Below are positions 5,571 through 45,965 of a DNA stretch of 64,000 nt, piece after piece. The notes beneath the pieces were generated by a model. The model saw nothing but the letters and a program-made list of their open reading frames with translations. It was not told the origin of the DNA and did not search any database. The position numbers and the translations under genes were made by a program. Numbering within the stretch: position 1 is the stretch's first letter; every line of letters starts with the position of its first letter. Source of the DNA: an uncultured bacterium (lineage in GTDB: Bacteria > Omnitrophota > Omnitrophia > Omnitrophales > Aquincolibacteriaceae); assembly GCA_964385615.1 (NCBI GenBank), contig CAYLPP010000002.1:40518-104517 (forward strand). The letters are read 5' to 3'.

Positions 5571-5719
5571 TTTTCTTCGAACAAATCCAGCTGGCGGTTT
5601 TTCTGTCTTTCTTTTTTCTTTTGGTAGGTTTTTTTGGAGGGCACGACACGCGCTTTGGGGTTGATGCCCCAGGTGCGGCGGATTTTAGGAAGTTTTGGTT
5701 TTTTCTTTTTTGGAGCCAT
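5567..5719 (-). CDS. small basic protein, 49 aa (MAPKKKKPKLPKIRRTWGINPKARVVPSKKTYQKKKERQKNRQLDLFEEN), unannotated small ORF
   Basis: Hand translation of the - strand. Its ATG overlaps the TAA stop of the upstream SuhB-like gene as TAATG (5717-5721). Very lysine/arginine-rich. Absent from the supplied track only because it is below 60 aa. No homologue recognised. Confidence 0.35.
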   Translation of the reverse strand: MAPKKKKPKLPKIRRTWGINPKARVVPSKKTYQKKKERQKNRQLDLFEEN

Positions 5720-7694: not shown

Positions 7695-7697
7695 TTT

Positions 7698-8636: not shown

Positions 8637-8717
8637 AAGGGTTGTCATCCCTGCGAAAGCAGGGATCCAGGCTTTTAAGAACTGGATTCCAGCTTTCTCT
8701 GGAATGACAGAAGATGG

Positions 8718-11378: not shown

Positions 11379-11421
11379 GTGTATTTCTCATTTCGCTCAA
11401 TGCGAAGACATTGAGCATCCT

Positions 11422-12060
11422 ATGAGCGAAAAAGAACAGCAGGAATTAAAAGTTTCTCCGCATTTTTACCTTCGGCGCCTTCACTCCCTGACAGGCGTTT
11501 TTCCTATCGGCGCGTTTCTTCTCGAACATATGTTCTCAAACTCCTTCATTACGCGCGGGCCGGAAGCCTACAATAAGCAGATCGAGTTTTTGCTTAGCAT
11601 GCCGTATGTCACGATGATTGAACTTTTTGTCATATATCTTCCGATTCTTTATCACGCGCTTTACGGTTTTTATGTCATGTTTACCGGTAAGAATAATCTG
11701 GGCTGGTATCCGAATAAGGAAAACTGGCTTTACGCCGCTCAGCGGTGGACCGGCATTCTGACCTTTGCGTATATTTCTTACCATGTTTATCACACTAAAA
11801 TTGTTCATGTCCTTTACGGCACGGAAGTCAGCTATGCCCGCATGGCGGAGCTGATGCACAATCCCGGCATTATGGTTTTTTATCTGGTCGGCATGGCCGC
11901 GGCCATGTTTCATTTCGCAAACGGTCTCTGGGGTTTTCTGATCAGCTGGGGGATTACGGTCGGAACCGGCGCCCGCCGGCTTTCGGGCTGGATCTGCACT
12001 CTGCTCGGCCTCTCGCTTTATTTCGCGGGCGTAAACGCGGTTATTCACTTGGTGCGTTAA
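11422..12060 (+). CDS. sdhC: succinate dehydrogenase cytochrome b subunit
   Basis: 212-aa polytopic membrane protein with conserved histidines, immediately upstream of sdhA and sdhB. Confidence 0.7.
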   Translation: MSEKEQQELKVSPHFYLRRLHSLTGVFPIGAFLLEHMFSNSFITRGPEAYNKQIEFLLSMPYVTMIELFVIYLPILYHALYGFYVMFTGKNNLGWYPNKENWLYAAQRWTGILTFAYISYHVYHTKIVHVLYGTEVSYARMAELMHNPGIMVFYLVGMAAAMFHFANGLWGFLISWGITVGTGARRLSGWICTLLGLSLYFAGVNAVIHLVR

Positions 12061-13799
12061 TGGCGGATACAAAAGGTAAAGTTGTCGTTGTCGGCGGAGG
12101 TTTGGCGGGTTTGATGACGACCATCAAGCTCGCGGAAGCCGGCATTGGTGTCGATCTGATTTCGATTGTTCCCTGCAAACGGTCACATTCGGTTTGCGCG
12201 CAGGGCGGGATCAACGCTTCAGTCAATACCAAGGGTGAGGGAGATTCTCCGCAAATTCATTTTGAAGAAACTATTCTAGGCGGAGATTTCCTGGCCAATC
12301 AGCCGATGGTCCGCGAGATGTGTGAGAACGCGCCCAATTTCGTTTATATGCTGGATCGTATGGGGGTGCAGTTCAACCGCACGCCCGAAGGTTTAATTGA
12401 TTTCCGCCGTTTCGGCGGAACGCGTTTTCACCGCACGGCTTTTGCGGGCGCCACAACTGGTCAGCAGATTCTTTACGCGTTGGACGAGCAGGTGCGCCGT
12501 TTCGAAGCTGAAGGGAAAGTGACCCGCTATGAAGGCTGGGAATTTCTTTCCGCGGTGATTGATGATTCCAATGTGGGGCGCGGGATTGTCGCTTTGAATC
12601 TTACTAATTTTGAAGTCCGGTCTTTCCGCGCGGATGCCGTGGTGTTTGCCACCGGCGGATGCGGGATGATTTACGGCCGTTCGACGATGTCGATGATTTG
12701 CACCGGCGCGGCGGCGGGTTCTCTTTTCCAGCAGGGCGTGCATTACGCGAATGCCGAATTTATTCAGATTCATCCCACTGCGATCGCGGGTGAAGACAAG
12801 AATCGGTTGATCTCTGAAGCGGTGCGTGGTGAAGGCGGACGTCTTTGGACTTATAAAGACGGCAAGCGCTGGTATTTCATGGAAGAGTGGTATCCCAAAT
12901 ACGGCAATCTGGTACCGCGCGATATTGCTTCACGCGCGATTTTTAAAGTGGTGCGCGAGCTGAAGCTTGGTCTCGAAGGCAAAGACGTTGTTTATCTCGA
13001 TATTTCCCACGTGGATCCCAAAACGCTCAAAGCCAAGCTGGGCGGAATTCTCGAGCTCTACGAGAAGTTCATGAATGAAGACCCCAGCAAAGTTCCGATG
13101 CGCGTATTTCCATCTGTTCATTATTCCATGGGCGGAATTTATATTGATTCCAAACACATGACGAATGTTCCGGGTCTTCTGGCAGCCGGTGAAGCCGATT
13201 ATCAGTATCACGGAGCTAACCGCTTGGGCGCGAATTCACTGTTGTCCTGCCTTCAGGGCGGGCTGGCAGCCGCGCGTACGGCGGGGGAATACATTCAGGG
13301 TCTGAACCGCTCCGCGGATGATACGGCCGACAAATGGTTTTTGCAGCAGATTAAAAAAGAAGAATCCCGCCAGGATGAAATCCTTCGTCTGCACGGCAAA
13401 GAAAATCCGTATGAGCTTTGGGAAGAAATGGGCGAAGTCATGACTTCTAATGTGACTGTGGTTCGTTACAATAAAAACCTGGAAGAAGCGGATAAGAAAC
13501 TGATTGAGCTCAAGGAACGCGCTAAAAATATCAATGTGGCGGACGTTTCAAAGTGGGCCAATCAAACCGTGGTGTTTACCCGCCAGCTTTTCAATATGCT
13601 TGAGATCGCCCGATGCATCACGCTGGGCGCGCTGGCGCGTAACGAGAGCCGTGGAGCGCATTACAAACCCGATTTTCCGAACCGTGACGACGCCAACTGG
13701 CTCAAGACCACCGTGGCTAAATATACGCCTAAAGGCCCTGAGCTTTCTTACGAAGCGGTCGATACATCACTGTTGAAACCTCGCGAGCGGAAATACTAG
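12060..13799 (+). CDS. sdhA: succinate dehydrogenase flavoprotein subunit
   Basis: FAD-binding VVVVGGGLAGL, covalent-FAD histidine region RSHSVCAQGGINA, and a C-terminal fumarate reductase/SDH domain. Confidence 0.9.
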   Translation: MADTKGKVVVVGGGLAGLMTTIKLAEAGIGVDLISIVPCKRSHSVCAQGGINASVNTKGEGDSPQIHFEETILGGDFLANQPMVREMCENAPNFVYMLDRMGVQFNRTPEGLIDFRRFGGTRFHRTAFAGATTGQQILYALDEQVRRFEAEGKVTRYEGWEFLSAVIDDSNVGRGIVALNLTNFEVRSFRADAVVFATGGCGMIYGRSTMSMICTGAAAGSLFQQGVHYANAEFIQIHPTAIAGEDKNRLISEAVRGEGGRLWTYKDGKRWYFMEEWYPKYGNLVPRDIASRAIFKVVRELKLGLEGKDVVYLDISHVDPKTLKAKLGGILELYEKFMNEDPSKVPMRVFPSVHYSMGGIYIDSKHMTNVPGLLAAGEADYQYHGANRLGANSLLSCLQGGLAAARTAGEYIQGLNRSADDTADKWFLQQIKKEESRQDEILRLHGKENPYELWEEMGEVMTSNVTVVRYNKNLEEADKKLIELKERAKNINVADVSKWANQTVVFTRQLFNMLEIARCITLGALARNESRGAHYKPDFPNRDDANWLKTTVAKYTPKGPELSYEAVDTSLLKPRERKY

Positions 13800-13850
13800 T
13801 AAGGATGCGGATGCGCCTTGCTGTATCGGTAAATAGGAGCCGATGCGGAT

Positions 13851-14600
13851 ATGCCAGAGAAAAAAACGGTCAAAGTTAAAATTAAGCGCCAAGACGGTAA
13901 AGATGCCCGGCCTCACTGGGAAGAGTTCCACATTCCCTACCGGCCGTACATGAATGTCATTATCTGCCTCCAGGAAATCCGTAAGATGCCCAAGACTTTT
14001 GACGGCCGTCCAACGACGCCCCCTTCCTGGGAATCCAGCTGTCTGGAAGAAGTTTGCGGAGTTTGCACTATGGTCATCAACGGCAAAGTCCGTCAGGCAT
14101 GTTCGGCGCTGATTGATCAACTGGGTACGGAAATTACGATTGAACCCATGACTAAATTTCCGCTGGTCCGTGATCTGATCGTCGACCGTTCCCGTCTTTT
14201 TGAAAGTTTGAAACGCGTCAAAGCCTGGATTCCGATTGACGGCACGCACAACCTCGGCCCCGGCCCGCGAATCAATTCCGATCAACAGCAGAAAGATTAT
14301 CTTCTTTCGACCTGCTTTTCATGCGGATGCTGTTTGGAGGTTTGTCCGCAGGTCAACGGACGTTCTGATTTTATGGGCGCCATGGCGATCAATCAGGCCC
14401 GTCTTTTTAATGATCATCCGCTGGGGAAAGGTTCGGCTAAAGAGCGAGTTCAGTCTCTCATGGCGAAGGGTGGTATTGAGGATTGCGGGAATGCTCAAAA
14501 CTGCGTGAAGGCCTGTCCAAAACATATCCCGCTGGTTGAATCCATTGCCGAAATGAATAATCAGGTCACGAAGGCGATCTTCGGCGGTCTTAAGGATTGA
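13851..14600 (+). CDS. sdhB: succinate dehydrogenase iron-sulfur subunit
   Basis: 2Fe-2S cluster CLEEVCGVC, 4Fe-4S CFSCGCCLEVCP and 3Fe-4S CGNAQNCVKACP motifs. Confidence 0.9.
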   Translation: MPEKKTVKVKIKRQDGKDARPHWEEFHIPYRPYMNVIICLQEIRKMPKTFDGRPTTPPSWESSCLEEVCGVCTMVINGKVRQACSALIDQLGTEITIEPMTKFPLVRDLIVDRSRLFESLKRVKAWIPIDGTHNLGPGPRINSDQQQKDYLLSTCFSCGCCLEVCPQVNGRSDFMGAMAINQARLFNDHPLGKGSAKERVQSLMAKGGIEDCGNAQNCVKACPKHIPLVESIAEMNNQVTKAIFGGLKD

Positions 14601-15133
14601 TGGCTTCGCGCAAGCGCAAAACCTCTTCGGTCTTCTCTCCTCAAATAGGTAAGCAAGTTTATATCGATCCTTCCGCCCAAGTTATCGGGCAAGTTTCAAT
14701 CGGGGATTATTCCAGCGTGTGGCCGGGCGTGGTCATGCGAGGGGATATCAATAAAATCAAGATTGGCAGATACACCAATATTCAGGACTTATCCCTTCTG
14801 CACGTTGAAACAAATCAGGCCTGTGTGATCGGGGATTATGTCACGGTGGGCCATCAGGTTTGCCTGCATGCCTGCACGGTGAGAAATCAGGCGCTTGTTG
14901 GAATTGGTTCTATTGTGATGGACGGCGCCGTCATCGGGGAGGGCGCGATCCTCGGAGCGGGAAGTCTAGTGACGCACAATCAGAAACTGAAACCTCATTC
15001 TTTGTATTTTGGCAGACCCGCCAAATTTGTCCGCAAGCTTTCCCGCAAGGAAATCAGCGGTCTTAAGGCCTGGGCTTTGCGCTACGTTGATTATTCAAGC
15101 GCTCATCTTGAAGGCCGGTTTAACAGGGTTTAA
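14600..15133 (+). CDS. gamma-class carbonic anhydrase family / left-handed beta-helix hexapeptide-repeat protein
   Basis: Hexapeptide repeats (VGHQVCLHACTV, IGEGAILGAGSLV) with the conserved histidines of the gamma-CA/PaaY fold. ATG at 14600 overlaps the sdhB stop as TGATG. Confidence 0.7.
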   Translation: MASRKRKTSSVFSPQIGKQVYIDPSAQVIGQVSIGDYSSVWPGVVMRGDINKIKIGRYTNIQDLSLLHVETNQACVIGDYVTVGHQVCLHACTVRNQALVGIGSIVMDGAVIGEGAILGAGSLVTHNQKLKPHSLYFGRPAKFVRKLSRKEISGLKAWALRYVDYSSAHLEGRFNRV

Positions 15134-15245
15134 AGCGGGTCTTCAAACCTTCTATTGGATTTTATAGCAGACTATAACCCTGAACTCTTTGGAAAAGCTT
15201 TTTTCAGGTGCGGATTTCAAACTTTCCGCTATAATAGGGCTCTTT

Positions 15246-16400
15246 ATGTCACCAGAGAATACAGCAAAAGCAGAACCTAATTTCGTCAAAGGCCTGGATG
15301 GTGTAGTTGCTTCCCAGACCGTTTTAAGCCTTGTGGACGGCGCTAACAGCCGGCTCTATTACCGCGGGATCCCCGTTGAAGAGCTAGCCGCGAACTCTTC
15401 TTTTGAAGAAACGGTTTACTTTCTCTGGACTGGCCATCTTCCTTCCGCTTCCGAACTTTCTGAGTTTAAAAAGAACCTCGCTGATAATCGCGCGCTTTCT
15501 CCTGACATTCTTAAGGTTCTGACGACATTTCCCAAAACCGCGCATCCGATGGGGGTTTTACGCACCATGATTTCGGTGATGGGTATTTTTGATAAAGACG
15601 GAGATAAACAGGACCCTGAAAATATGCGCCGGCAGGCTTTGAGGCTTACCGCCTGTGTTCCGACCCTGATCGCCGCTTTCTACCGTATACGGGAAGGCAA
15701 GGAGCCGATCGCTCCGGACAAGAAGCTTTCCCAAGCGGCGGATTTCCTTTATATGATGCACGGCAAAGAGCCCGCGCCTGAAATGGAACGGGCTTTGGAC
15801 GCTTATCTGATTCTTCTGGCTGATCACGGTTTGAACGCGTCTACCTTTTCTGCCCGCGTAACGACGGCGACGGAATCTGATCTTTATTCCGCGATTACTT
15901 CAGCGGTGGGGACCCTCAAGGGGGATCTCCACGGTTCCGCGAATCAGCGCGCCATGGAGATGATTTTGGATATCGCGGACCCGGCTAAGGCTGAAGATTA
16001 TGTGCGCAATCTCTTGAAGCAGAAGAAAAAGGTTATGGGTTTTGGGCACCGCATTTATAAAAAAGAAGATCCCCGCGCCGCGGTTTTCCGCGGAATCGCT
16101 AAAAAACTTTGTGAACGCGTGAAGGAATTCCGCTGGATGGAAATTTCCGACAAGGTTGAAAAAGTCATGTGGGAAGATAAGCAGATTCCCTGCAATGTGG
16201 ATTTCTTTTCCGCTTCGGTTCTTTACGTGCTGGGATTTCCCGTGGATTTTTTTACCACGGTTTTTGCTTCAAGCCGCGTCGCGGGCTGGACCGCTCATGT
16301 GATTGAACAGCGCGCTGACAACCGGCTGATCCGTCCGGCCGCGGAGTATATCGGACCTAAAGATCAGCATTACGTGCCTGCAGACAAGCGCAACCAGTAA
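15246..16400 (+). CDS. gltA: citrate synthase
   Basis: Active-site region VMGFGHRIYKKEDPRA and the HGSANQ histidine motif. The first ATG is at 15246. The supplied ORF starts at a TTG at 15189, and a TATAAT hexamer at 15230-15235 lies inside that extension, favouring the ATG. Confidence 0.85.
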   Translation: MSPENTAKAEPNFVKGLDGVVASQTVLSLVDGANSRLYYRGIPVEELAANSSFEETVYFLWTGHLPSASELSEFKKNLADNRALSPDILKVLTTFPKTAHPMGVLRTMISVMGIFDKDGDKQDPENMRRQALRLTACVPTLIAAFYRIREGKEPIAPDKKLSQAADFLYMMHGKEPAPEMERALDAYLILLADHGLNASTFSARVTTATESDLYSAITSAVGTLKGDLHGSANQRAMEMILDIADPAKAEDYVRNLLKQKKKVMGFGHRIYKKEDPRAAVFRGIAKKLCERVKEFRWMEISDKVEKVMWEDKQIPCNVDFFSASVLYVLGFPVDFFTTVFASSRVAGWTAHVIEQRADNRLIRPAAEYIGPKDQHYVPADKRNQ

Positions 16401-16411
16401 CCGGGGGAAGA

Positions 16412-17578
16412 GTGAACGTACACGAATACCAGGCTAAGGAAATTTTTAAGCGTTACGGAATCCCCGTTAATACTGCCATTCTGGCAAAGACCCCTCAGGA
16501 AGTTTTCCAATCCTCCAAAGAATTAATAAAGCCTGATACCGGCATCGCGGTTAAAGCGCAGGTGCATTCCGGCGGCCGCGGGCGCGCGGGCGGTGTGAAG
16601 GTTGTTTCGACCCCTGAAGAAGCGCGTGATCTTGCCTCTAAACTTTTTGGGAAAAAACTTATCACGGTTCAAAATGGACCTGACGGCCAGCCCGTGGATT
16701 TAATTTTGGTAGAACAGACGGCTCCGATCGCCAAGGAATATTATGTCAGTATTGTCCTGGACCGCAGCGCTGCTAAACCCTGTTTGATTGCTTCTGAAGC
16801 CGGCGGGATGAATATTGAAGAAGTGGCTCATGCCAATCCTGAAAAACTGATCCGTTCCCACTTTTCTCCTGAAACCGGTCTGAGCCTGAAACAGGCTGAG
16901 GATATTGCGGGTAAATTTTCCGGGCTGACCGCGGAGCAGAAAAAAGCTTTCGCCTCCATTTTTGAAGCGCTTGCGAAAATTTTTATGGACCTTGATGCTT
17001 CTCTGATTGAAATCAACCCGCTTGCCGTCATGAAGTCCGGAGGGGTTATCGCTATTGACGCCAAGATCAATTTTGATGATAACGCTCTTTACCGTCACGC
17101 GGATATCGCGGCCCTTCGCGATCCTAACCAGGAAGACAGCCGTGAGGTTGAAGCTAAGAAATTCGACCTGAGCTATGTCGGCCTGGACGGCAGTATCGGC
17201 TGTATTGTTAACGGCGCGGGACTCGCGATGGCTACGATGGATATCATTAAATACGCGGGCGGTGAACCGGCCAACTTTTTGGACGTCGGCGGAGGCGCGG
17301 GAAAAGAAAAAGTCGCCGCGGCTTTTAAAATTATTCTCAAGGATCCCAAAGTTAAAGCCATTCTGGTTAATATTTTCGGCGGAATTATGCGCTGTGATGT
17401 TGTGGCTGAAGGGATTCTGGCGGCGATTAAAGAAGTCGGCGTGCAGGTGCCGTTAGTCGTACGTCTTGAAGGAACAAACGTTGAAGAAGGGAAGGCCATC
17501 TTGAAACAGTCCGGCCTGAAAATTATTTCCGCGTCTGAATTTTCCGAAGCGGCGGAAAAAGTGGTGGGGTCGTTATGA
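16412..17578 (+). CDS. sucC: succinyl-CoA synthetase beta subunit
   Basis: N-terminal ATP-grasp [19 protein letters not shown] and CoA-ligase domain [15 protein letters not shown]. The stop overlaps the sucD start. Confidence 0.9.
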
Positions 17579-18477
17579 GTATTTTGGTTAATAAAGACAC
17601 CAAGGTCATTGTTCAGGGGATTACCGGCACGCACGGCTCTTTTCATGCGCAGAAGATGCTGGAATACGGCACCAAAGTTGTCGGCGGTGTGACGCCTAAA
17701 AAAGGCGGCCAGCAGGTTCACGGCATTCCGGTATTCAACACGGTTAAAGAAGCGGTGCAGGCCACAGGCGCTAACGCCTCTGTGATTTATGTGCCGGCGA
17801 GTTTCGCGGTCGGCGCTATCCGGGAAGCCGGAGAGGCTGGAATTCCGCTGGTCGTCTGTATCACGGAAGGTATTCCCGCGCTGGATATGGCGAAGATCAA
17901 GCCTTGGATTGTTGAAAAGAAAATAACTTTAATTGGGCCGAATTGTCCCGGGATTATCACCCCGGGTGAATGCAAAATCGGCATCATGCCCGGATATATT
18001 CATAAAAAAGGCCGGATCGGCGTGGTTTCCCGCAGCGGGACCCTGACTTATGAAGCGGTCTGGCAGCTTTCGACCCGCGGGATCGGACAGTCCACCTGTA
18101 TCGGAATCGGCGGAGATCCGATTGTCGGCACGAATTTTATCGACGCGCTCCCGCTTTTCGAAAAAGATCCGGATACCGACGCGGTCATTATGATTGGCGA
18201 AATCGGCGGATCCGCGGAAGAAGAAGCCGCGGAATTTATTGAAAAGAAAATGTCCAAACCCGTAGTGGTTTTTATCGCGGGCAGCACGGCTCCTCCGGGG
18301 AAACGTATGGGGCACGCGGGGGCCATTATTTCCGGCGGTTCCGGAAAAGCTGAAGATAAAATCGCTCGGCTTAAAAAAGCCGGAGCCTTTATCGCGCCCA
18401 GTCCGGCTTTGCTCGGCGAAACGATGGAGAAAGTCCTGGCGGAAAAGTATGCTCAAAAATCTCGATCACGAGTTTGA
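17575..18477 (+). CDS. sucD: succinyl-CoA synthetase alpha subunit
   Basis: CoA-binding [14 protein letters not shown] and the phosphohistidine loop [12 protein letters not shown]. Confidence 0.9.
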
Positions 18478-21179: not shown

Positions 21180-21725
21180 GTGATTCTACCGAAGAAGATT
21201 TTTTTGACCAAAGGCGTGGGTGTTCACCGTGAGAAACTTTCGAGCTTCGAGCTCGCCCTTCGTGACGCGGGGATCGCGCCGTACAACATTGTGCGCGTTT
21301 CCAGCATTTATCCGCCGTACTGCAAGCTGATCTCCAAGGAAGCCGGTTTAAAATATTTGACGCCCGGCCAGATCCTTTTCAGTGTTGTGGCCGAATGCGC
21401 GACTAATGAACCTAACCGTTTGATCGCTTCTTCTATCGGTATGGCGCTTCCTAAAAAGCCTGAGCAGTACGGCTATCTGTCTGAAGCCCACACTTACGGC
21501 TGGACGGAGAAGAAGACGGGTGAATACGCGGAAGACTTGGCAGCGAGCATGCTGGCCACGATTCTGGGCGTGAAATTTGATCCGAATGAAAGCTACGACA
21601 AGCGGCGCGAACAGTGGAAAATTTCCAATGAAATCGTCCGTACCACCGCCAACACCAAGAGCGCGGTTGGCGATAAAGACGGCAAGTGGACTACGGTCAT
21701 TTCCGCGGCTGTGCTGATTCATTAA
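21180..21725 (+). CDS. pdaD: pyruvoyl-dependent arginine decarboxylase
   Basis: Family-typical N-terminus ILPKKIFLTKGVGVHREKL and overall 181-aa length. GTG start preceded by GAGGAGGAAG. Confidence 0.75.
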   Translation: MILPKKIFLTKGVGVHREKLSSFELALRDAGIAPYNIVRVSSIYPPYCKLISKEAGLKYLTPGQILFSVVAECATNEPNRLIASSIGMALPKKPEQYGYLSEAHTYGWTEKKTGEYAEDLAASMLATILGVKFDPNESYDKRREQWKISNEIVRTTANTKSAVGDKDGKWTTVISAAVLIH

Positions 21726-21748
21726 GCGATTTGGTTAGATAAACCCCG

Positions 21749-21780
21749 CACGGTCCATAAAGGCCTGCGGGGTTTCTTTC
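21749..21780 (+). terminator. intrinsic-terminator-like hairpin between pdaD and aguB (ACCCCGCA-N15-TGCGGGGT followed by TTTCTTTCTGTTT)
   Basis: 8-bp GC-rich inverted repeat followed by a U-rich tract. It sits only 6 nt before the aguB ATG, so it could be an attenuator rather than a full stop. Confidence 0.4.
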
Positions 21781-21785
21781 TGTTT

Positions 21786-22667
21786 ATGAAGAAAAAAACT
21801 AAAAATTCAAAAGTGGTCGTAGGTCTGGTTCAGATGTCGAACTCCAAGAGCCCGGAGGCGAATCAGGAAAAGGCTTGTGCCCGTGTGTTGAAAGCGGCCA
21901 AGCAGGGCGCTCAAATCATCTGCCTTCAGGAGATGTACCGCACCCTCTATTTCTGCCAGAAGTATGACCACAAAAATTTCGATCTGGCTGAAACCGTTCC
22001 CGGCCCCAGCACCCGTGTTTTTTGTGAGATTGCCCGCCAGAAGAAAGTCGTGATCATTGTTCCGATTTTTGAAAAACGCGCGGCCGGAATTTATCACAAC
22101 AGCGCGGTTGTGATTGACGCGGACGGACAGATTCTCGGCACTTATCGAAAGATGCATATTCCGGATGATCCCAATTTCTACGAGAAATTTTATTTCACGC
22201 CGGGTGATTTGGGTTTCCGGTCTTTTCAGACCCGGTACGCTAAAATTGGCGTGCTGATCTGCTGGGATCAGTGGTTTCCCGAAGGCGCAAGGTTAACAGC
22301 TCTTTCCGGCGCCCAGATTCTTTTCTACCCGACGGCGATCGGTTTTCACCATTCTGACAAAAAGTTTGCTAAGGCCCAGCTGACCGGCTGGCAGACCGTT
22401 CAGCGGGGACACGCTGTCGCGAACGAAGTTTTTGTTTGCGCCGCAAACCGCGTGGGCAAGGAAGGCCCGGTCAAGTTCTGGGGAAATTCTTTCGTGTCTG
22501 ATCCCTTCGGCACTGTGATTGCCAATGCCGGAGAAGATAAGGAACAAAACCTGATCGTTGAATGTGACCTCAGTCAGATTGAAAGCACACGCCGTAACTG
22601 GCCTTTTCTGCGCGACCGCCGTATCGACGCATATTCCGGAATCACTTCGAGATTTCTGAATGCCTAA
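21786..22667 (+). CDS. aguB: N-carbamoylputrescine amidase (carbon-nitrogen hydrolase / nitrilase superfamily)
   Basis: CN-hydrolase catalytic triad context: LQE at the Glu, GVLICWDQWFPE at the Cys, and a central RKMH lysine. Overlaps the aguA start. Confidence 0.8.
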   Translation: MKKKTKNSKVVVGLVQMSNSKSPEANQEKACARVLKAAKQGAQIICLQEMYRTLYFCQKYDHKNFDLAETVPGPSTRVFCEIARQKKVVIIVPIFEKRAAGIYHNSAVVIDADGQILGTYRKMHIPDDPNFYEKFYFTPGDLGFRSFQTRYAKIGVLICWDQWFPEGARLTALSGAQILFYPTAIGFHHSDKKFAKAQLTGWQTVQRGHAVANEVFVCAANRVGKEGPVKFWGNSFVSDPFGTVIANAGEDKEQNLIVECDLSQIESTRRNWPFLRDRRIDAYSGITSRFLNA

Positions 22668-23721
22668 TCTTCTCACCGGTACCTCTGCTTTGAAGACTCC
22701 GTCTTCGCAGGGCTATTTCATGCCCGCCGAATGGGCAAAGCATGAAGCTACTTGGCTTTCCTGGCCTCATAACACCATTACCTGGCCCGGAAAAAGACTG
22801 GCGCGGGTGCGCGATATCTACCTTCAGATGATTGAGAATCTTCTTCCTGAAGAAAAAGTAAAACTGCTTCTGGCCCCGAAGATGAAAGAAGAAGTTTTGA
22901 AATTTCTTAAGCCCAAGCTTTCACAGAAAAGTCTTAAAAATCTGATTATCATTGAAGAGCCGACAGTAGATGCCTGGATCCGTGATTACGGGCCGACCTT
23001 TGTCGTTAAGAAGGGTGAGAAGGCCTGGGTGAAGTGGACCTTTAACGCCTGGGGCGGAAAGTATTCGGATCTGGCCGAAGACACGCATATTTTTGAAAAT
23101 AAAAAATTAATTGCCCAGCCTTGTTTTGAAGCGGGGATCGTGCTGGAAGGCGGTTCTATTGAAGTGAATGGAGCCGGTACCTGCATGACCAGCGAGCAGT
23201 GTCTTTTAAACAAAAACCGGAATCCCCGCCTGACTCAGTTTGAAATTGAACAATACCTGAAAGAGTATCTCGGCGTTTCCCAGGTGCTTTGGCTGAATGA
23301 AGGAATTGTCGGGGATGATACGGACGGTCACATTGACGATATCGCGCGGTTTGTGGATGAAAAGACGATTTTAACCGTCTATGAAGACAATGTTTCAGAC
23401 GAGAATCACGCGTTCTTAAGAGAGAACTGGGAAAGGCTTAAAGCAGCCGAAACGACTTCCGGAAAGAAATGGAATGTGATTAAACTGCCTATGCCCAAGC
23501 CTGTTGAGGAAGGCGGGGGCAGGCTTCCTGCCAGCTACGCTAATTTCTTGATTGCTAACGCTTCGGTCCTGCTTCCGGTTTATGCCTGCAGGCAAGATAA
23601 GGATGCCGTGAAGATTCTGAAGGAAGTTTTTCCGAAGAAAGATATTGTTCCGATTGACTGCACGGCGATGGTCTATGGCTTGGGCGCGATTCATTGCGTT
23701 TCACAGCAGGAACCCGCCTAA
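22660..23721 (+). CDS. aguA: agmatine deiminase
   Basis: Porphyromonas-type peptidylarginine/agmatine deiminase motifs: WIRDYGP, GGSIEVNGAGTCMTSEQCLLNKNRNP and the C-terminal GAIHCVSQQEP catalytic cysteine. Confidence 0.85.
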   Translation: MPNLLTGTSALKTPSSQGYFMPAEWAKHEATWLSWPHNTITWPGKRLARVRDIYLQMIENLLPEEKVKLLLAPKMKEEVLKFLKPKLSQKSLKNLIIIEEPTVDAWIRDYGPTFVVKKGEKAWVKWTFNAWGGKYSDLAEDTHIFENKKLIAQPCFEAGIVLEGGSIEVNGAGTCMTSEQCLLNKNRNPRLTQFEIEQYLKEYLGVSQVLWLNEGIVGDDTDGHIDDIARFVDEKTILTVYEDNVSDENHAFLRENWERLKAAETTSGKKWNVIKLPMPKPVEEGGGRLPASYANFLIANASVLLPVYACRQDKDAVKILKEVFPKKDIVPIDCTAMVYGLGAIHCVSQQEPA

Positions 23722-23746: not shown

Positions 23747-24556
23747 TTAGTTTAACGCAAGTGCCTGCTGTTTCTTAAAAGACTCACCGACATCCGCTCG
23801 TCTGGTATTTTCAGGAAGATCGAAATTAAAGTCGGCTGAACCGTTGCCGGCTGAAAACTCCACCGATTTAAAAAGCATGACCGTCTCGTTTGCACCCCGC
23901 TCCGCGTAGGACTCAATTCTTATTTTACCAGGGTAAGAAAAAGATTCTTTTGCTGATTTTTCAACGGTTTCAAATCCGTTTCTTTCAATAAGTGTCCGGG
24001 GCTTGCCGTCCTTGCGGTAATAGACCTCCTTAAGCGTATTCCCATTTCTGTCAGTGTAAACCGAGCGTGAAAGCTGACCGTTTGTTTGAATTCCAAGTTG
24101 AACGAGGTCTCCGGTGTCAGAAAGAATTTGTGTCCGGGTTTCATCAATTAAAGAAGGTTTAAGTGAGCGGTAAAGATCCAAAGCTTTGAGGTGGCTGTGA
24201 ATTTCAGGAGAATCTTCGAGATCGAAGATGGTTCCCGAAAAGACAGTATTTTGACGGGGCAGGTAAAGGTCAAAATTCCGGTCATCCGTTCGGAACACGA
24301 AAAGAAGCTGGTTCTGATCGTTGAAACCTTTCAGGAGGATTTTTTCATCCAGCCGGTTGTAAACCAGATCGGCCCGGCAGAAAGCTTTTTTTCCGTCAGG
24401 AGTTGAGAACTCCATCCGGAGGGAAGCCTGCATTTGAATCCAAAAACCGCGCTGAGCCTCAATTTTTCTGACGATCTCAGAAAGATTCGGCGCTTGAGCC
24501 TGAAGCGGAAGGCACACCAGGACAAGCAGAAAAAGAAAGGGTGCTGTTTTTTTCAT
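23747..24556 (-). CDS. hypothetical secreted lipoprotein-sorting-like protein (LolA/LolB-like fold suspected)
   Basis: N-terminal signal peptide MKKTAPFLFLLVLVCLPLQAQA. Co-directional with, and 18 bp downstream of, the inositol-lipid genes. Confidence 0.35.
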   Translation of the reverse strand: MKKTAPFLFLLVLVCLPLQAQAPNLSEIVRKIEAQRGFWIQMQASLRMEFSTPDGKKAFCRADLVYNRLDEKILLKGFNDQNQLLFVFRTDDRNFDLYLPRQNTVFSGTIFDLEDSPEIHSHLKALDLYRSLKPSLIDETRTQILSDTGDLVQLGIQTNGQLSRSVYTDRNGNTLKEVYYRKDGKPRTLIERNGFETVEKSAKESFSYPGKIRIESYAERGANETVMLFKSVEFSAGNGSADFNFDLPENTRRADVGESFKKQQALALN

Positions 24557-24573: not shown

Positions 24574-25173
24574 TTAATTTTCGGACGGAGGAACGGAAAG
24601 TTTATTCTTTGTGTAGAGAATCCGGTGAACCGCGGTGGCATTGGTTCCGATCAGAAGAATGATCAGGCACAAAGGGCGCACCCAGCCGCCGAAAGCCGAA
24701 TAGACTCCCAGCACAATCAGCCGTTCCGGTCTTTCAAATACGCCGATCGTGCAATCGTCGATCATGTTTTCCGCCCGCGCTTTGGCGTAGCTGGTTACAA
24801 ACGCTCCCGCAATGATGCCGAGACAAACAGCAGTCCATCCCGCCTGCTGAAGATGAGCGTAATGAACGGCCAGACCGCCGAAAAGAAAAAGATCCGCGTA
24901 GCGGTCAACGGTAGAATCCAGGAACGCGCCGAATTTGGAGATTTTTCCGCTGTGGCGGGCTAAGGGACCGTCGAACATATCGCCAAGACAGGCAAATAGG
25001 AGAAGGATACCCCCCCAGAAGAAATGGCCGGAGGCATAAATCACACCGCTGGTCAGGCTGAGTGCCAGACCAGCGAGTGTGACGTGATTTGGGGAAATGC
25101 CCTTGCTGTCTAGAAAGATAGCGACTTGCTTCAGTCCGGACTCAAGATAAGGGTAGACGTGTTTTCTGAGCAC
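24574..25173 (-). CDS. CDP-alcohol phosphatidyltransferase family protein (candidate phosphatidylinositol-phosphate synthase or DIP-phosphate synthase)
   Basis: Signature D(x)2DG(x)2AR(x)8G(x)3D(x)3D is intact (DMFDGPLARHSGKISKFGAFLDSTVDRYAD) within a 199-aa polytopic membrane protein. Confidence 0.8.
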   Translation of the reverse strand: MLRKHVYPYLESGLKQVAIFLDSKGISPNHVTLAGLALSLTSGVIYASGHFFWGGILLLFACLGDMFDGPLARHSGKISKFGAFLDSTVDRYADLFLFGGLAVHYAHLQQAGWTAVCLGIIAGAFVTSYAKARAENMIDDCTIGVFERPERLIVLGVYSAFGGWVRPLCLIILLIGTNATAVHRILYTKNKLSVPPSEN

Positions 25174-25182
25174 GCCGTCTTC

Positions 25183-26292
25183 TTATCGGGGGCAGGTGCC
25201 CTGCACAAATTTCTTCACGAGCTCTTTGGCTTCCGTGTCAGGAATTTGTTTGGGCGGGTGCTTCATGGTGTAAGCGGACATTGAAATCAGCGGACCGCCG
25301 ATTTTGCGGTCACGGGCGATTTTGGTCGCGCGGATTGCGTCAATCGCGCAGCCGGCGCTGTTCGGTGAATCTTCCACCGACAGACGGAGTTCAATGTTGA
25401 TGGGGAAACCCGCGAAACCGCGGCCTTCCATGCGCAAATAGCAGACCTTGTTGTCGTTCTGCCAGGGAACATAATCTGAAGGACCGATATGAATATTATC
25501 TTCGTGAAGCGGTTCGGCCATCTGGCTCTGCACGGCAGCCGTCTTTGAAATCTTTTTGGATTTCAGGCGCGTGCGGTTGAGCATATTCAGGAAATCCGTG
25601 TTACCGCCGGTGTTCAGCTGGTAAGTACGGTCAACCTTAACTCCGCGGTCTGAGAAAAGCTTGGTCAGAGTGCGGTGGACGATCGTGGCGCCGACCTGAG
25701 CCTTGATATCATCACCGACGCAGGGGATACGCTTGTCTTCAAAGCGCTTGGCCCATTCAGGGTTTGAAACGATAAAGACCGGCATGCAATTGATCAGGCT
25801 GACTCCGGTTTTAAGGCAGGCTTCCGCGTAGAATTCCACGGCTTTCTGGCTTCCGACCGGGAGGTAGTTCAGGAGAATTTCAGCGCCTGATTCCCGGAGG
25901 ACTTTTTCGACATTGCAGGGTTTTTTGTTTGAGAGGACGAAAGTCCGGTCATCCGGGTAATCCGCCATGTGAGCGGAATAGCCGTCAAGCACCGGGCCCA
26001 TCTCTACAACCACTTTGCTTTTGGGGATCCGGTTATTTTCAAGGGGGAGAAGGCAGTTAGGCTTGGCTTTTAAGGCGACGTCAAAGGTTTCGCCCACTTT
26101 TCTTTTGTCGATATCGAAAGCCGCGACAAACTCGATATCTTCAGGGAAATAACCGCCCATTTCGTAGTTCATGAGGCCCATGAATTCTTTTTTCTTCTTG
26201 GCCTTGGTGGTTTCTTTGTAATATTCAATACCTTGAACGAGTGATGCGGCGCAATTACCGACGCCGGCGATCGCAACTTTAATCTTGCCCAT
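25183..26292 (-). CDS. myo-inositol-1-phosphate synthase (archaeal/bacterial short type)
   Basis: N-terminal NAD-binding KVAIAGVGNCASSL-like motif (KVAIAGVGNCAASLVQG), about 370 aa. Family features GPSDYVPW and the catalytic region SYNHLGNNDG-like (SQMAEPLHEDNIHIGPSDYV). Confidence 0.75.
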   Translation of the reverse strand: MGKIKVAIAGVGNCAASLVQGIEYYKETTKAKKKKEFMGLMNYEMGGYFPEDIEFVAAFDIDKRKVGETFDVALKAKPNCLLPLENNRIPKSKVVVEMGPVLDGYSAHMADYPDDRTFVLSNKKPCNVEKVLRESGAEILLNYLPVGSQKAVEFYAEACLKTGVSLINCMPVFIVSNPEWAKRFEDKRIPCVGDDIKAQVGATIVHRTLTKLFSDRGVKVDRTYQLNTGGNTDFLNMLNRTRLKSKKISKTAAVQSQMAEPLHEDNIHIGPSDYVPWQNDNKVCYLRMEGRGFAGFPINIELRLSVEDSPNSAGCAIDAIRATKIARDRKIGGPLISMSAYTMKHPPKQIPDTEAKELVKKFVQGTCPR

Positions 26293-26564
26293 CTGGAAAA
26301 TCCTCCGATTTTAAATTTTAAAATAGCATCCCATCTCAGGCGGGGCCTTTTGGGGAAAGCTCTGAACGGAACTTGCTCAGGCGAAAGTGATTATAGCATT
26401 GAATGCTTCTAAATCAAGCGGAAAGCTTGCCGTGTAAACCATTTAAAACAATAGGGTTGTAAAATATAAGTCCTATAAAAACGATCAAATTAGATTTAAT
26501 CAAGCGGATTTCCTATGATAAAATCCTGCTTTCATCAACCCTGAAAGGATAACCGGAGATTGAA

Positions 26565-26888
26565 ATGACCATTCCTCTTGAAGAATTTAAGAAAATCCAG
26601 CTGAAGGTGGCTCAAATTGAGTCCGTGGAGCCTCATCCAAACGCTGACAGGCTCTATGTTTTGAAAATCAAAGTAGGTGAAGTCCAGAAGCAGATTGTGG
26701 CGGGCATTCGCAAGCACTATACCGAAGAGGAACTTAAAGGGAAAAAGATCGTGATTGTGGATAATCTCGAACCCGCGGTGATTCGGGGAGTGGAGTCTAA
26801 CGGGATGCTTTTGGCGGCATCCGACACAGAGTCTCTGACGGTAATTGTTCCTGAGAGACCGATTTCTGACGGAGCTTTGATTAAGTAA
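26565..26888 (+). CDS. csaA: tRNA-binding protein (CsaA/Trbp111, EMAP-II-like OB fold)
   Basis: LKVAQIESVEPHPNADRLYVLKIKVGE is typical of the MetRS C-terminal-like tRNA-binding domain; the protein is 107 aa. Confidence 0.75.
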   Translation: MTIPLEEFKKIQLKVAQIESVEPHPNADRLYVLKIKVGEVQKQIVAGIRKHYTEEELKGKKIVIVDNLEPAVIRGVESNGMLLAASDTESLTVIVPERPISDGALIK

Positions 26889-26891
26889 AGT

Positions 26892-27279
26892 TTAGAACGG
26901 AACGGCGAAATAGGCTGAAAGATTTTTCCAGGTTACGTAATGAATGTAGGCCAGGAAAACGATGAGGGCGAAAAGACTGATGAACCGGACCGGGCCTTTT
27001 TCATTCCAGAGCTGTTTCATCATAAAGCCGATGAAGCTGAAATACAAAATAGTGATTGGAAGCAGAATCGCGTAATAAGTTACGTTTTGGGATGAGGGGA
27101 GAGGCACGAAGCTTCCGATTACATTCTTAAGGCCGTAGGTCATGTAAAGAGGAGGGCCCATCAGAACCAGCGAAGCATCGTCGCTCCATCTTTTCAGATA
27201 AGCGACAAAGGCCAGAATTCCAAATAGAAAAAAATAACGGATGAGATGATGGATTTGGCCGATTGATTTCTTTTCCATG
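26892..27279 (-). CDS. hypothetical integral membrane protein
   Basis: Four predicted TM helices. Start chosen at the ATG at 27279 to avoid overlap with the divergent DUF1015 gene; the supplied ORF extends to 27404. Confidence 0.3.
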
Positions 27280-27345
27280 AAGTGATTAATGTAGTATGCG
27301 CCCAATTTCTTGTCAAAGAAAAACTCTTGTGCTACTATCAACCCC

Positions 27346-28701
27346 ATGGTTTCTTCCAGTAAGACATCCCCGTTAAAAAAGCTCGCGGACTTCCGGCCTC
27401 TCAAGGGTTGGCGCTACAATCCCGGGCAAATCAATTTTTCAGAGGTTATCGCTCCGCCCTACGATGTCATTTACCCGGCGGAGCAGGAAACCCTTTATAA
27501 ACGGTCTCCTTACAACTGCGTGCGGTTGGTTCTCAATAAGATTGAACCTTCAGACACCGATCAAAATAACCGGTATACCCGCGCGAAGCAGTTTTTCGCG
27601 GACTGGCAGAAATCGGGTCACCTGATTCAGGAAGAAACCCCGGCTTTTTACGTTTACCGTCAGACTTATCAGGATCCGGTGACCGGCCGTAAGCTGGACC
27701 GCACGGCGGTTTTGGGCCGTCTTCGTCTTGAGCCTTTTGACAAAGGAATTGTTGTTCCGCATGAAAAGACGCTGTCTCAGGCGCGCGCGGATCAGCGCAG
27801 ACTTTTGGAAACCGCGCAGGTCAGCTTCTCACCCGTTTTTGGTCTTTATGATGATCCTAAAAAAGAAATGGAATCCGCGGTGGAAAAGATCAAGTCGGGC
27901 AAACCGGCGCTTGATGCCGTAGATGACCAGAAAGTCGCGCACACGGTCTGGCCGGTCACGGACCCGCAAACGCTTGAGAAGATTCAGGAAATCATTTCGC
28001 GGAAAAATATTTATATCGCTGACGGTCACCATCGGTATCAGACTGCGTTAGAGTACAGCCAGGATGTCCGGAAACAGAAAAATGTTCCGGAAGGCGAAGA
28101 CCTGCCGTCGGACTTTGTTTTAATCGCTTTGGTTGAGTTTCATGACCCGGGCTTGATTTTGATGCCGACCCACCGCATCCTTCTTCCTTACGCCGGTTTT
28201 GAAGGGGAAAAGTCGGTTGAAAAGCTGAAAAGCTATTTTAAGGTCGAGCCGGTTTCTGAAGAAGAGCTTAAGAAAAAAATCGCGGTCCGCAATAACGGCA
28301 AAGACGTTTGTATGGGATTGGGGCTGAATGGGAAATATTTTTTCCTGACGCTTACGGAGTTTGAAAAAGCCAAAGCGGCCGTGGGGCTGAGTAAGGCAGA
28401 TGTTTGGTACCGGCTGGACGTGAACATTCTGGCGCATCTGATTTTTAACAAGCTCTGGAACTTGCCTGAATCTGATTGGGAGAAAACGCTTAAATTTACC
28501 CGGATTGAGTCCGAAGCTTTTCAATACGCGTCATCCGCCAAAGCCTGCGCGGTGTTTTTTCTTCAGCCTCCGCGCGTGGAATCGCTCCGGGAGATGGGCG
28601 AAATCCGCGAGCTTATGCCGCAGAAATCCACTTACTTTTACCCCAAGCTGGCCAGCGGGCTCGCGTTTTATGCCCACAAAATCGATTCAGGTACAAAGTG
28701 A
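27346..28701 (+). CDS. DUF1015 family protein
   Basis: Conserved ADGHHRYQTALEY block and overall length. The first ATG is at 27346; the supplied ORF begins at a TTG at 27310. Confidence 0.55.
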   Translation: MVSSSKTSPLKKLADFRPLKGWRYNPGQINFSEVIAPPYDVIYPAEQETLYKRSPYNCVRLVLNKIEPSDTDQNNRYTRAKQFFADWQKSGHLIQEETPAFYVYRQTYQDPVTGRKLDRTAVLGRLRLEPFDKGIVVPHEKTLSQARADQRRLLETAQVSFSPVFGLYDDPKKEMESAVEKIKSGKPALDAVDDQKVAHTVWPVTDPQTLEKIQEIISRKNIYIADGHHRYQTALEYSQDVRKQKNVPEGEDLPSDFVLIALVEFHDPGLILMPTHRILLPYAGFEGEKSVEKLKSYFKVEPVSEEELKKKIAVRNNGKDVCMGLGLNGKYFFLTLTEFEKAKAAVGLSKADVWYRLDVNILAHLIFNKLWNLPESDWEKTLKFTRIESEAFQYASSAKACAVFFLQPPRVESLREMGEIRELMPQKSTYFYPKLASGLAFYAHKIDSGTK

Positions 28702-37182: not shown

Positions 37183-37305
37183 GGTTTTTTCGCGAGTGCA
37201 GAATGTTGACCCGCTTTTTACTTTGATTTTTTAATCTGACAAGAAAATTTACACGCATTTTTCCCTATAGAAACCAAAGATTAAAAAAAATTTATTTTTT
37301 TTATT

Positions 37306-37340
37306 TGACAGCGTGTGATTGTGTGCTTAAAATGCGCAAC
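37306..37340 (+). promoter_or_regulatory. near-consensus sigma70 promoter (TTGACA-17 bp-TAAAAT) with an upstream A/T tract
   Basis: TTGACAgcgtgtgattgtgtgctTAAAAT, preceded by aaaaaaaatttatttttttt (UP-element-like). It lies about 470 bp upstream of nrdJ. Confidence 0.4.
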
Positions 37341-37502
37341 ACCTGAAGAAATTTTGAAGTTTTTTGACAATTAGTTTCGGTTTTGGATCCGTAAATCCGA
37401 GAAAAAAAACAAATGCAGTTCCGTCATTATACTTTTTCTGATGATTTGATGTCCGCGCCAATGACCGGCGCGTTAGCAACAGGTTATTTAGAACGGATTT
37501 AA

Positions 37503-37544
37503 GGCGGTCTTACCCCTTCGAGGGCTAAAGCCGTCTTTTTTTTT
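37503..37544 (+). terminator. intrinsic-terminator-like hairpin plus T9 run inside the nrdJ leader
   Basis: GGCGGTCTTACCCCTTCGAGGGCTAAAGCCGTC can fold with an inner CCCCT/AGGG stem. It is followed by TTTTTTTTT. Confidence 0.4.
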
Positions 37545-37715
37545 CTCTGAAATTCCGGAAGTCGCACAAAACTTCCATCAACCGAAATAAAGGGGAACTC
37601 AGCACCAGACTCTGGCTATGCTGACTCATTTCGGACGACCCAACACTGGAAAAATTCCAACAAAAAAATTAACTCAAGAGTTTAAACAGCCTTGACGAAC
37701 TATTGTCTAAAGATA

Positions 37716-37760
37716 CTACATATGGTAGACCTTAAGGGTGATTATCTACTATATGTTGAG
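37716..37760 (+). promoter_or_regulatory. tandem NrdR-box-like imperfect palindromes upstream of nrdJ
   Basis: ctacATATGgtag (37716-37728) and ctacTATATGttgag (37746-37760) are 30 bp apart, resembling the paired A/T-cored 16-bp NrdR operators. Both are imperfect. Confidence 0.3.
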
Positions 37761-37810
37761 AATAGTGCGATAAGGTTTTAAAAAGATTTAAATAAAGGGA
37801 GGCCCCTTAT

Positions 37811-40800: not shown

Positions 40801-41023
40801 CCTTCCCAAGCCGAAAACTCCGGTTAAGGGAACCAATGGCGGAACGATTGCCCGCGCGGCCGGCGGAAATACTTCAAGCCTGCTTCAGGGAACTTCGGCT
40901 TCCAATGAGCATCTGGCCAATATGATGGGCGATGCGCCGCTTTGCTCCTGCGGTCACGTTACGGTGCGCAGTGGTTCATGCTACAAGTGCTTGAACTGCG
41001 GTAACAGTCTCGGCTGTTCCTGA
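37811..41023 (+). CDS. nrdJ: adenosylcobalamin-dependent (class II) ribonucleoside-diphosphate reductase
   Basis: 1070 aa. Class II active-site [20 protein letters not shown], a thiyl-radical Cys region, and a C-terminal Cys-rich tail [25 protein letters not shown]. Confidence 0.9.
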
Positions 41024-45705: not shown

Positions 45706-45965
45706 CGGCTTCCAGCGTGAAGCCAATTGTCTGAGGGGTGCTTGAAACCCTTGGTTTTGGCCTAAAAATCAGTCCTGTCTTTTTATAGCAATCTAGCGCA
45801 TTTCCGCATAACGGATAACGGCATTATTTTTTCTGTTTTGAAAAAGCGGGAATTTGCACCCGGTTTCTTGACTTGTCAGATAAGCCGTGTTACTTTTTTT
45901 CCGCCTTTCGGTTTTAAACCCCTTTTTCAGCAGTAAAAAAATATTCTTAAAAGGTGATACTTTTT

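Follow-up and report, generated by a model that had tools for sequence, protein, structure and literature searches.

A probable Omnitrophota operon for inositol phospholipid synthesis joins a phosphatidylinositol phosphate synthase family gene to a gene for a LolA/LolB-fold protein

Inositol phospholipids are usually seen as a trait of eukaryotes, archaea and Actinobacteria, to which the Bacteroidota have recently been added. The mycobacterial and actinobacterial phosphatidylinositol (PI) pathway uses Ino1 (Rv0046c), a synthase of myo-inositol-1-phosphate (MIPS), and PgsA1 (Rv2612c), a phosphatidylinositol phosphate (PIP) synthase; structures of PIP synthases have been solved from Renibacterium salmoninarum (5d92) and Mycobacterium kansasii (6wm5). 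In the diderm Bacteroides thetaiotaomicron, MIPS and PIP synthase genes are clustered at BT_1522–BT_1526 and PIP is an intermediate (Heaver et al. 2022, PMC9246714), while the archaeal counterpart is archaetidylinositol phosphate (AIP) synthase. Secreted proteins of the LolA fold are known from operons for other specialised membrane lipids: LolA2/LolB2 in flexirubin loci (PMC11885536) and ApeL/ApeN in aryl polyene clusters (PMC8253772) have been proposed to move the product to the outer membrane, a function that is itself hypothetical. Here, we describe a locus from an uncultured bacterium of the phylum Omnitrophota in which genes for a MIPS, a CDP-alcohol phosphatidyltransferase and a LolA/LolB-fold protein follow one another. 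It lies in a stretch of 64,000 nucleotides (64 kb) with 46 open reading frames (ORFs), referred to below as the window (contig CAYLPP010000002.1, positions 40,518 to 104,517; all coordinates given here count from the first base of the window). We consider it probable that this operon makes an inositol phospholipid by the two-step route of mycobacteria, Bacteroides and archaea, and that the LolA-like product is functionally coupled to it.

All three genes are on the minus strand, with the MIPS gene (26292..25183; 369 amino acids (aa)) first, the transferase gene (25173..24574; 199 aa, GTG start) second and the gene for the LolA/LolB-fold protein (24556..23747; 269 aa) third. As the original prediction from the sequence had stated, the first two are adjacent and co-directional with a gap of 9 bp: after the MIPS stop codon TAA (25185..25183) come the nine bases GAAGACGGC and then the transferase GTG at 25173. 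The gap between the transferase and the third gene is 17 bp. The GTG start is backed by 28 homologues, each of which opens with M-[LI]-R-[KE], and a GGAGGA Shine-Dalgarno sequence stands 8 nt ahead of the MIPS ATG. Upstream, the trio is set off by 272 bp of intergenic sequence, on whose far side a divergent plus-strand gene encodes a tRNA-binding-domain protein (tRNA_bind; 26565..26888); downstream, it runs up against the end of a convergent agmatine deiminase gene (22660..23721, plus strand). A consensus scan of the 272-bp region found a sigma-70-like site, TTGATT-16-TATAAT with a TG extension (26390..26417, minus strand; 10/12 positions), but such sites are no commoner upstream of MIPS than in shuffled sequence, making this weak evidence for a promoter. 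A terminator scan returned only intragenic hits, below expectation, and so lent the operon boundary no support. The best explanation of the arrangement is a three-gene operon transcribed on the minus strand from about 26400 to 23747. The named close homologues of both the transferase and the third protein all come from metagenome-assembled genomes of Candidatus Omnitrophota/Omnitrophica.

By its sequence, the first gene is a genuine MIPS (inositol-3-phosphate synthase) of the short bacterial Ino1 type. Along the whole of the Pfam model PF01658 (Inos-1-P_synth; positions 1–107) the protein scored 129 bits, where the cutoff is 27, and it aligns with M. tuberculosis Ino1 (PDB 1gr0) over 363 columns (residues 3–365) at 51% identity and 393 bits. 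Its nearest match from another enzyme class, the five-membered cyclitol-phosphate synthase 6k96, reached 199 bits; the protein did not group with unrelated NAD-dependent dehydrogenases, and its original identification as MIPS therefore stands. The N-terminal dinucleotide (NAD)-binding motif GVGNCA, starting at G10, is conserved. Residues D195, K282, D308 and K344 align with D197, K284, D310 and K346 of M. tuberculosis Ino1, which we take to be the essential residues of that enzyme. Against TIGR03450, the equivalog model for the actinobacterial, mycothiol-type INO1, the protein scored 424 bits over its full length, below the cutoff of 638 bits, which places it with the short bacterial-type MIPS but outside the narrow actinobacterial equivalog, as expected for a different phylum. 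Among Omnitrophota loci, MIPS identity is 78–89%.

The second gene encodes a protein with a Pfam match to PF01066 (62.6 bits) in which the catalytic motif is complete, as had been predicted: D65-x2-D68-G69-x2-A72-R73-x8-G82-x3-D86-x3-D90. All eight motif residues are invariant in 28 Omnitrophota homologues. In a broader comparison of 52 family members, which spans about ten phyla and one archaeon (the Archaeoglobus locus L036), seven positions are invariant, and R73 is R in 51 members and K in one. This motif, common to CDP-alcohol transferases, does not by itself specify a substrate, and homologues are labelled PgsA in several sources (automatic JGI names), as would suit an ordinary phosphatidylglycerophosphate (PGP) synthase, or another CDP-alcohol transferase unrelated to inositol, that stands beside MIPS by chance. 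The curated NCBIfam profiles argue otherwise. Over its full length, the transferase scored highest against AIP synthase (NF040950; 143 bits, cutoff 180) and PIP synthase (NF045883; 129 bits, cutoff 170), and since both scores fall below the equivalog cutoffs it is filed in the broad PIP/AIP synthase family and in neither equivalog. By contrast, the PgsA model (TIGR00560; cutoff 109) gave 32.5 bits, and the score for PssA or cardiolipin synthase was about 22 bits. The BT1523-type model of Bacteroides gave 89 bits against a cutoff of 350, and the Thermococcales IPCT/DIPPS model 53 bits against a cutoff of 580, over residues 25–133 only.

Sequence searches of the PDB placed 5d92, 6h53 and 6wm5 as the best matches to the transferase. 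With the single sequence, the PIP synthase structures from Renibacterium, M. tuberculosis and M. kansasii scored 57–74 bits, and with a 28-sequence profile 101–111 bits; with that profile, AF2299 reached 64 bits, the DIPP synthase (DIPPS) 56 bits and PGP synthase 21 bits. An AlphaFold (AF2) model of the transferase was all-helical with a membrane fold (pLDDT 89.5). When the model was searched with Foldseek, PIP synthases made up 10 of the 11 top hits (TM-score 0.73–0.79; the best superpositions at 0.74–0.79 with 28–32% identity), the other being AF2299; further AF2299 chains and DIPPS followed, while PGP synthase was a much poorer match (TM-score 0.58, E 0.018).

The residues that contact inositol phosphate separate these families further. 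In M. tuberculosis PgsA1 (MtPgsA1), the pocket consists of R94, S132, K135, R152, R155 and R195 together with R137 of the partner chain; mutagenesis supports R155, R195 and R94, and Y133 and R137 were likewise mutated (PMC6506517). The positions R94/S132/Y133/K135/R137/R152/R155/R195 correspond to R91/S128/Y129/K131/R133/R148/R151/R184 of the transferase, and all eight are invariant among the 28 Omnitrophota homologues. Across the 52 members, five of the eight do not vary; all 50 sequences that reach the column of R184 have R there, and at K131 only K or R occurs. In E. coli PgsA, by contrast, the eight columns read K, S, A, R, W, T, Q and Y: it keeps the S132 equivalent and has R at the K135 column, and the other six of the eight are replaced. 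In a neighbour-joining tree the transferase fell in a monophyletic Omnitrophota clade within the PIP/AIP synthase family, which includes the characterised actinobacterial enzymes, and E. coli PgsA formed a long outgroup branch. As this tree was built without bootstrap and without a DIPPS reference, it supports the exclusion from PgsA more strongly than relationships within the family; the comparison with DIPPS rests on the profile hidden Markov model, PDB and fold scores.

Taken together, four independent lines (curated profiles, PDB sequences, structure and specificity residues) place the transferase with inositol-phosphate-using enzymes, as originally predicted, and away from PgsA. On this sequence and model evidence it is a CDP-alcohol phosphatidyltransferase of the PIP/AIP synthase family that is predicted to use inositol phosphate, and its substrates and products are those we infer from the family. 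That MIPS adjacency recurs in four phyla, as described below, is a further point against an ordinary PgsA beside MIPS by chance, a reading that we regard as highly improbable.

The enzymes of these two genes would very probably act in sequence, by analogy with the characterised pathways. MIPS would convert glucose-6-phosphate to 1L-myo-inositol-1-phosphate (equivalent to D-myo-inositol-3-phosphate), and the transferase would move the phosphatidyl group of CDP-diacylglycerol onto the inositol phosphate, yielding PIP and CMP. This is presumably the chemistry of the mycobacterial enzyme, in which CDP-diacylglycerol and inositol 3-phosphate give PIP (PMC6506517). The Omnitrophota pair resembles the mycobacterial one in the short type of its MIPS and in the size, catalytic motif, complete set of pocket residues and fold of its transferase. 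It differs in that the transferase is only about 28–32% identical to the actinobacterial PIP synthases and falls under the NCBIfam cutoff for them, that MIPS and transferase share one operon to which a LolA-fold gene is attached, that no PimA or PatA glycolipid genes adjoin this operon, and that the host belongs to a Gram-negative-type candidate phylum. The clustering of MIPS with a PIP synthase in a diderm, and PIP as the intermediate, recall Bacteroides. However, the Bacteroides cluster has no LolA-like gene, and the window has no PgpA-family PIP phosphatase, GtrA-like protein or AUR1-like inositol-phosphoceramide synthase; the PgpA-family and AUR1-like genes are also absent from the annotated Omnitrophota loci. 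With archaeal AIP synthase the transferase shares its highest-scoring curated model and, in Archaeoglobus L036, the same pocket residues, but it stays below the cutoff of that model and groups with bacterial sequences in the tree. A bacterial host would be expected to supply CDP-diacylglycerol rather than CDP-archaeol.

The original prediction had named either an inositol lipid or an inositol phosphodiester as the product, and of these the lipid is favoured. For the phosphodiester to be made, the transferase would have to be a stand-alone DIPP synthase that joins CDP-inositol and inositol phosphate, with an enzyme of the IMPase family removing the phosphate to leave the osmolyte di-myo-inositol phosphate (DIP). 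DIPP synthases do have the same motif and also bind inositol phosphate, the transferase gave weak matches to the Thermococcales model and to PDB 4mnd, and the window contains an IMPase-family gene (5719..6519, minus strand; PF00459, 230 bits). However, the DIPPS scores lie far below those of the PIP and AIP synthases, and no nucleotidyltransferase (IPCT) was found in the window or beside the operon in the annotated loci L083–L086. The related contigs derive from mesophilic sources (sludge, lakes and groundwater), whereas DIP occurs as a solute in hyperthermophiles, and the obligate partner of the transferase is predicted to be periplasmic and to have a fold that accommodates hydrophobic ligands. 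The IMPase-family gene itself lies 18 kb from the operon amid unrelated metabolic genes, was not detected in flanks of up to 6 kb around the transferase in 80 related loci, and belongs to what we take to be a near-ubiquitous housekeeping family. DIP synthesis is thus very unlikely here; like the PgsA reading and that of an archaeal-type lipid, it was rejected in view of the scores, the residues, the tree and the gene context. The same IMPase gene had been put forward as a supplier of the dephosphorylation step, a role that we do not retain: the gene is real, but it is unlinked, and the PIP synthase route has no need of it, because inositol phosphate is used directly and free inositol is not required. 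Dephosphorylation of PIP acts on the lipid, and in Bacteroides is carried out by a PgpA-family enzyme (PMC9246714).

Conservation of the gene order was assessed in 54 loci that code for relatives of the third protein, collected from metagenomes and by exact-sequence look-ups. The transferase gene lies directly upstream of the LolA-like gene on the same strand in all 46 loci with at least 700 nt of upstream sequence, and MIPS precedes the transferase in 33 of the 34 Omnitrophota loci with at least 1900 nt. The adjacent transferases of 51 loci (pooled with L002–L004) form 39 clusters at 90%, 16 at 80% and 10 at 70% identity, so the linkage does not reflect one genome sampled repeatedly. The junction between transferase and LolA-like gene can be tighter still than in the window: in L085 the LolA-like gene starts at 5001, immediately after the last base of the transferase gene (5000), and in L086 the two overlap by 8 nt. 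Downstream of the pair the flank varies, with either agmatine deiminase or PHO4/PhoU/Pst genes. At three loci (L002:881-2940, L131:786-2686 and L134:200-2058) the pair is kept and no MIPS stands between tRNA_bind and the transferase; such loci include that of Ca. Taenariivivens baikalensis. In these cases MIPS may be encoded elsewhere in the genome, or inositol phosphate may be acquired from outside. The adjacency of MIPS and transferase is not due to chance, and the third gene is the most tightly linked partner of the transferase.

Relatives of the transferase were also sought in one genome per GTDB species, giving at least 592 loci, of which the best 80 were inspected. These come from Omnitrophota, Acidobacteriota, Gemmatimonadota, Chloroflexota, Methylomirabilota/Rokubacteria, Nitrospirota, Aquificota, Deferribacterota, Desulfobacterota and Verrucomicrobiota, as well as an alphaproteobacterium, Actinomadura and Archaeoglobus. 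In Nitrospirota (L038, L060), a MIPS with 62–65% identity is encoded directly upstream of the transferase. In Chloroflexota (L037:2811-6585), a MIPS gene (47–48% identical) is followed by one for a 558-aa GT4 glycosyltransferase and then by the transferase, an order reminiscent of the synthesis of phosphatidylinositol mannosides. In Gemmatimonadaceae (L016:6004-8068), the transferase is directly followed by a 449-aa MIPS of the long eukaryote/archaeal type (PF07994 and PF01658). Adjacency of transferase and MIPS thus recurs in four phyla (Omnitrophota, Nitrospirota, Chloroflexota and Gemmatimonadota), and the pairing of the transferase with two unrelated types of MIPS gives independent support to its functional assignment. 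At the level of genes, these sequences show that the pathway extends beyond Actinobacteria and Bacteroidota. The original statement that inositol lipids are uncommon outside those two groups therefore does not extend to the transferase family, which is not rare there. A literature search found no survey of PIP synthase across bacterial phyla.

Among the same relatives, six loci of Methylomirabilota/Rokubacteria (L014:5719-8559, L039:5548-8595, L053:5830-8601, L047, L069 and L076) carry a PIP-synthase-like domain within a single ORF of 900–1015 aa, in which it is followed by TPR repeats and a C-terminal SLT lytic transglycosylase domain (PF01464, 95–98 bits). In these ORFs a synthase of membrane lipids appears to be fused to a murein hydrolase of the periplasm.

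The third protein was identified solely by structure prediction and fold search, as sequence searches gave nothing usable. Neither the single sequence nor a 40-sequence profile matched any entry in Pfam, NCBIfam or the PDB, and for the Pfam LolA clan nothing significant was found: DUF4292, DUF2092 and LolA_like appeared below threshold in one or two of the 40 members (E 0.02–0.07). Its 93 detectable homologues are unnamed or hypothetical, and every one with a named organism is from Omnitrophota; judged by these identifiable hits, the family would be specific to this phylum. An AlphaFold model built with 40 homologues (pLDDT 87.9, pTM 0.82) matched LolA/LolB structures in a Foldseek search of the PDB with E values of 7e-12 to 1e-9, a probability of 1.00 and TM-scores of 0.41–0.66. 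The top matches were LolA3 and LolB of P. gingivalis, 3bk5 (a Vibrio 'outer membrane lipoprotein-sorting protein'), NE2245 of Nitrosomonas, 3buu and E. coli LolA, with LolA proteins of Vibrio, Yersinia and Pseudomonas also among the hits. The originally predicted lipoprotein-sorting-like gene directly after the transferase was thus confirmed at the level of the fold, the modelled protein having the LolA/LolB architecture of an unclosed beta-barrel with a helical plug.

At its N-terminus the third protein carries the putative signal peptide MKKTAPFLFLLVLVCLPLQAQA, followed by P after the cleavage site. By eye, most homologues have an A-x-A cleavage region of the signal-peptidase-I type and no conserved lipobox cysteine, a pattern that hints at a soluble protein of the periplasm, as LolA is, and away from an anchored one of the LolB kind. 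The most conserved stretch, residues 108–134, reads G-[ST]-I-F-D-L-E-D-S-P-x-I-x-S-H-L-K-A-L-D-L-Y-R-A-L-K-P and spans a low-confidence loop and the single internal helix of the AlphaFold model; speculatively, it would be consistent with a lid or docking element.

LolA-fold proteins hold acyl chains in a hydrophobic cavity. In the mechanism that we propose, the third gene product would be exported to the periplasm as a LolA/LolB-type half-barrel functionally coupled to the transferase, bind the inositol lipid, or a derivative of it, by its acyl chains, and carry it or hand it over towards the outer membrane. By analogy with the pathway-specific LolA-like proteins of the lipid-pigment clusters, this is the most economical account, and we put forward a dedicated periplasmic carrier or chaperone as a tentative suggestion, held at less than even confidence. 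As in the flexirubin and aryl polyene clusters, a LolA-fold protein, here predicted to be secreted, is encoded in an operon for a specialised membrane lipid. Unlike in those clusters, the LolA-like protein is here partnered with a pathway for a phospholipid head group and not with one for a polyketide-like pigment. Its gene has neither a LolB-like lipoprotein gene nor an RND exporter gene beside it, and the named members of its sequence family are all from Omnitrophota, with no assignment in Pfam.

The main rival to this carrier role is that the third gene encodes the housekeeping lipoprotein carrier LolA and stands beside the transferase by inherited gene order, leaving the enzymology of MIPS and PIP synthase unchanged. 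Genuine LolA proteins are among its best fold matches, its signal peptide looks to be of the signal-peptidase-I type as in LolA, and the conservation of DUF1015 and tRNA_bind upstream reveals strong synteny across the phylum. Conversely, no similarity to the Pfam LolA families reached significance at the level of sequence, and no LolCDE genes were found in the window. The short or overlapping junctions with the transferase persist while the downstream flank changes, and the attachment to the transferase outlasts the loss of MIPS from the locus, and the gene is missing downstream of the transferase in L005 and L009. We therefore regard a housekeeping LolA as somewhat unlikely, although it must be weighed seriously beside the carrier.

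Several points weigh against the explanation as a whole, in addition to the sub-cutoff scores of the transferase in both of its top equivalog models. The two loci just named, also from Omnitrophota, have MIPS and transferase without the LolA-like gene, which hints that this gene can be dispensed with. The genes upstream of the operon (tRNA_bind, a membrane ORF of 120–170 aa and DUF1015) are likewise syntenic throughout the phylum, so inherited gene order may account for part of the linkage, which tempers the case for functional coupling. The LolA-like protein could equally carry lipoproteins. The window encodes no PgpA, PAP2 or HAD-type PIP phosphatase, no CdsA and no lipid glycosyltransferase, and a literature search found no paper that ties Omnitrophota/Omnitrophica to inositol lipids.

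With these genes absent from the window, the end product could be PIP, PI or a derivative; a phosphatase encoded outside the window would presumably turn PIP into PI. It is also conceivable that PI or PIP is an intermediate only, and that the LolA-like protein handles a surface glycolipid resembling phosphatidylinositol mannosides, or inositol-phosphoceramide. The GT4 glycosyltransferase gene between MIPS and transferase in the Chloroflexota relative (L037) fits such a product, Bacteroides takes the same first steps to inositol-phosphoceramide (PMC9246714), and the window holds a gene for a ceramidase-domain protein (58825..61254). However, neither the operon nor the window contains a glycosyltransferase, acyltransferase, serine palmitoyltransferase or AUR1-like inositol-phosphoceramide synthase, and the ceramidase-like gene is 33 kb from the operon, so that we consider a larger product of this kind improbable. 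The ceramidase-domain protein itself (minus strand, 809 aa) combines the N-terminal domain of neutral/alkaline ceramidase (PF04734, 96 bits) with a domain of the AAT acyltransferase/hydrolase type, a sequence feature that could hint at sphingolipid or ceramide metabolism in the genome that carries the operon.

The membrane ORF among the syntenic upstream genes (ORF170; 26892..27404, minus strand) has no Pfam match and lies between the tRNA_bind and DUF1015 genes, the latter at 27310..28701 on the plus strand and syntenic with the inositol operon across Omnitrophota. It is kept at 40–52% identity in at least seven Omnitrophota loci. Its listed TTG start overlaps DUF1015 and is probably too early. 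It was considered as a hidden PIP phosphatase and rejected: no PAP2 or PgpA motif was seen by eye, Pfam gave no hit, and the plus-strand tRNA_bind gene intervenes between it and the operon.

Other features of the window were recorded in passing. A run of tricarboxylic acid cycle genes within 6597..18477 (plus strand) encodes isocitrate dehydrogenase, malate dehydrogenase, aconitase, citrate synthase and succinyl-CoA ligase, together with the cytochrome b, flavoprotein and iron-sulfur subunits of succinate dehydrogenase. A complete agmatine route to putrescine follows at 21180..23721 (plus strand), with pyruvoyl arginine decarboxylase, N-carbamoylputrescine amidase and agmatine deiminase. At 37811..41023 (plus strand) lies a gene for a class II (B12-dependent) ribonucleotide reductase of 1070 aa with a C-terminal TSCPD domain; the 628-bp gap ahead of it (37183..37810), where GC content falls to its minimum for the window (0.44) and every ORF is shorter than 70 aa, could hold a riboswitch or other RNA. 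A giant ORF of 3323 aa (45954..55925, plus strand) contains a segment like GlpX-type fructose-1,6-bisphosphatase (residues 2238–2402, 58 bits) and a weak CofD-like segment (residues 1188–1398), with no other Pfam match.

The enzymology and the enzyme pair described here belong to a well-understood pathway; what appears to be new is the obligate LolA-fold partner of a PIP synthase gene. The MIPS and PIP synthase pathway is encoded and strongly conserved in an uncultured phylum, and lipid surveys of cultured strains may greatly understate how widespread inositol lipids are in environmental bacteria. The pairing of synthase and LolA-fold protein also offers a concrete candidate for how one class of phospholipid crosses the periplasm, an open question in diderm bacteria. 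In its most specific form, which we think unlikely, the LolA-fold protein would extract an anionic inositol phospholipid (PI, PIP or a derivative) and deliver it to the outer membrane or the cell surface; if this is true, it would be the first LolA-like transporter specific to one class of phospholipid. Omnitrophota are ultra-small, probably host-dependent bacteria, and an inositol lipid on their surface, like those of eukaryotes or archaea, could then be of importance when they meet host or prey cells.

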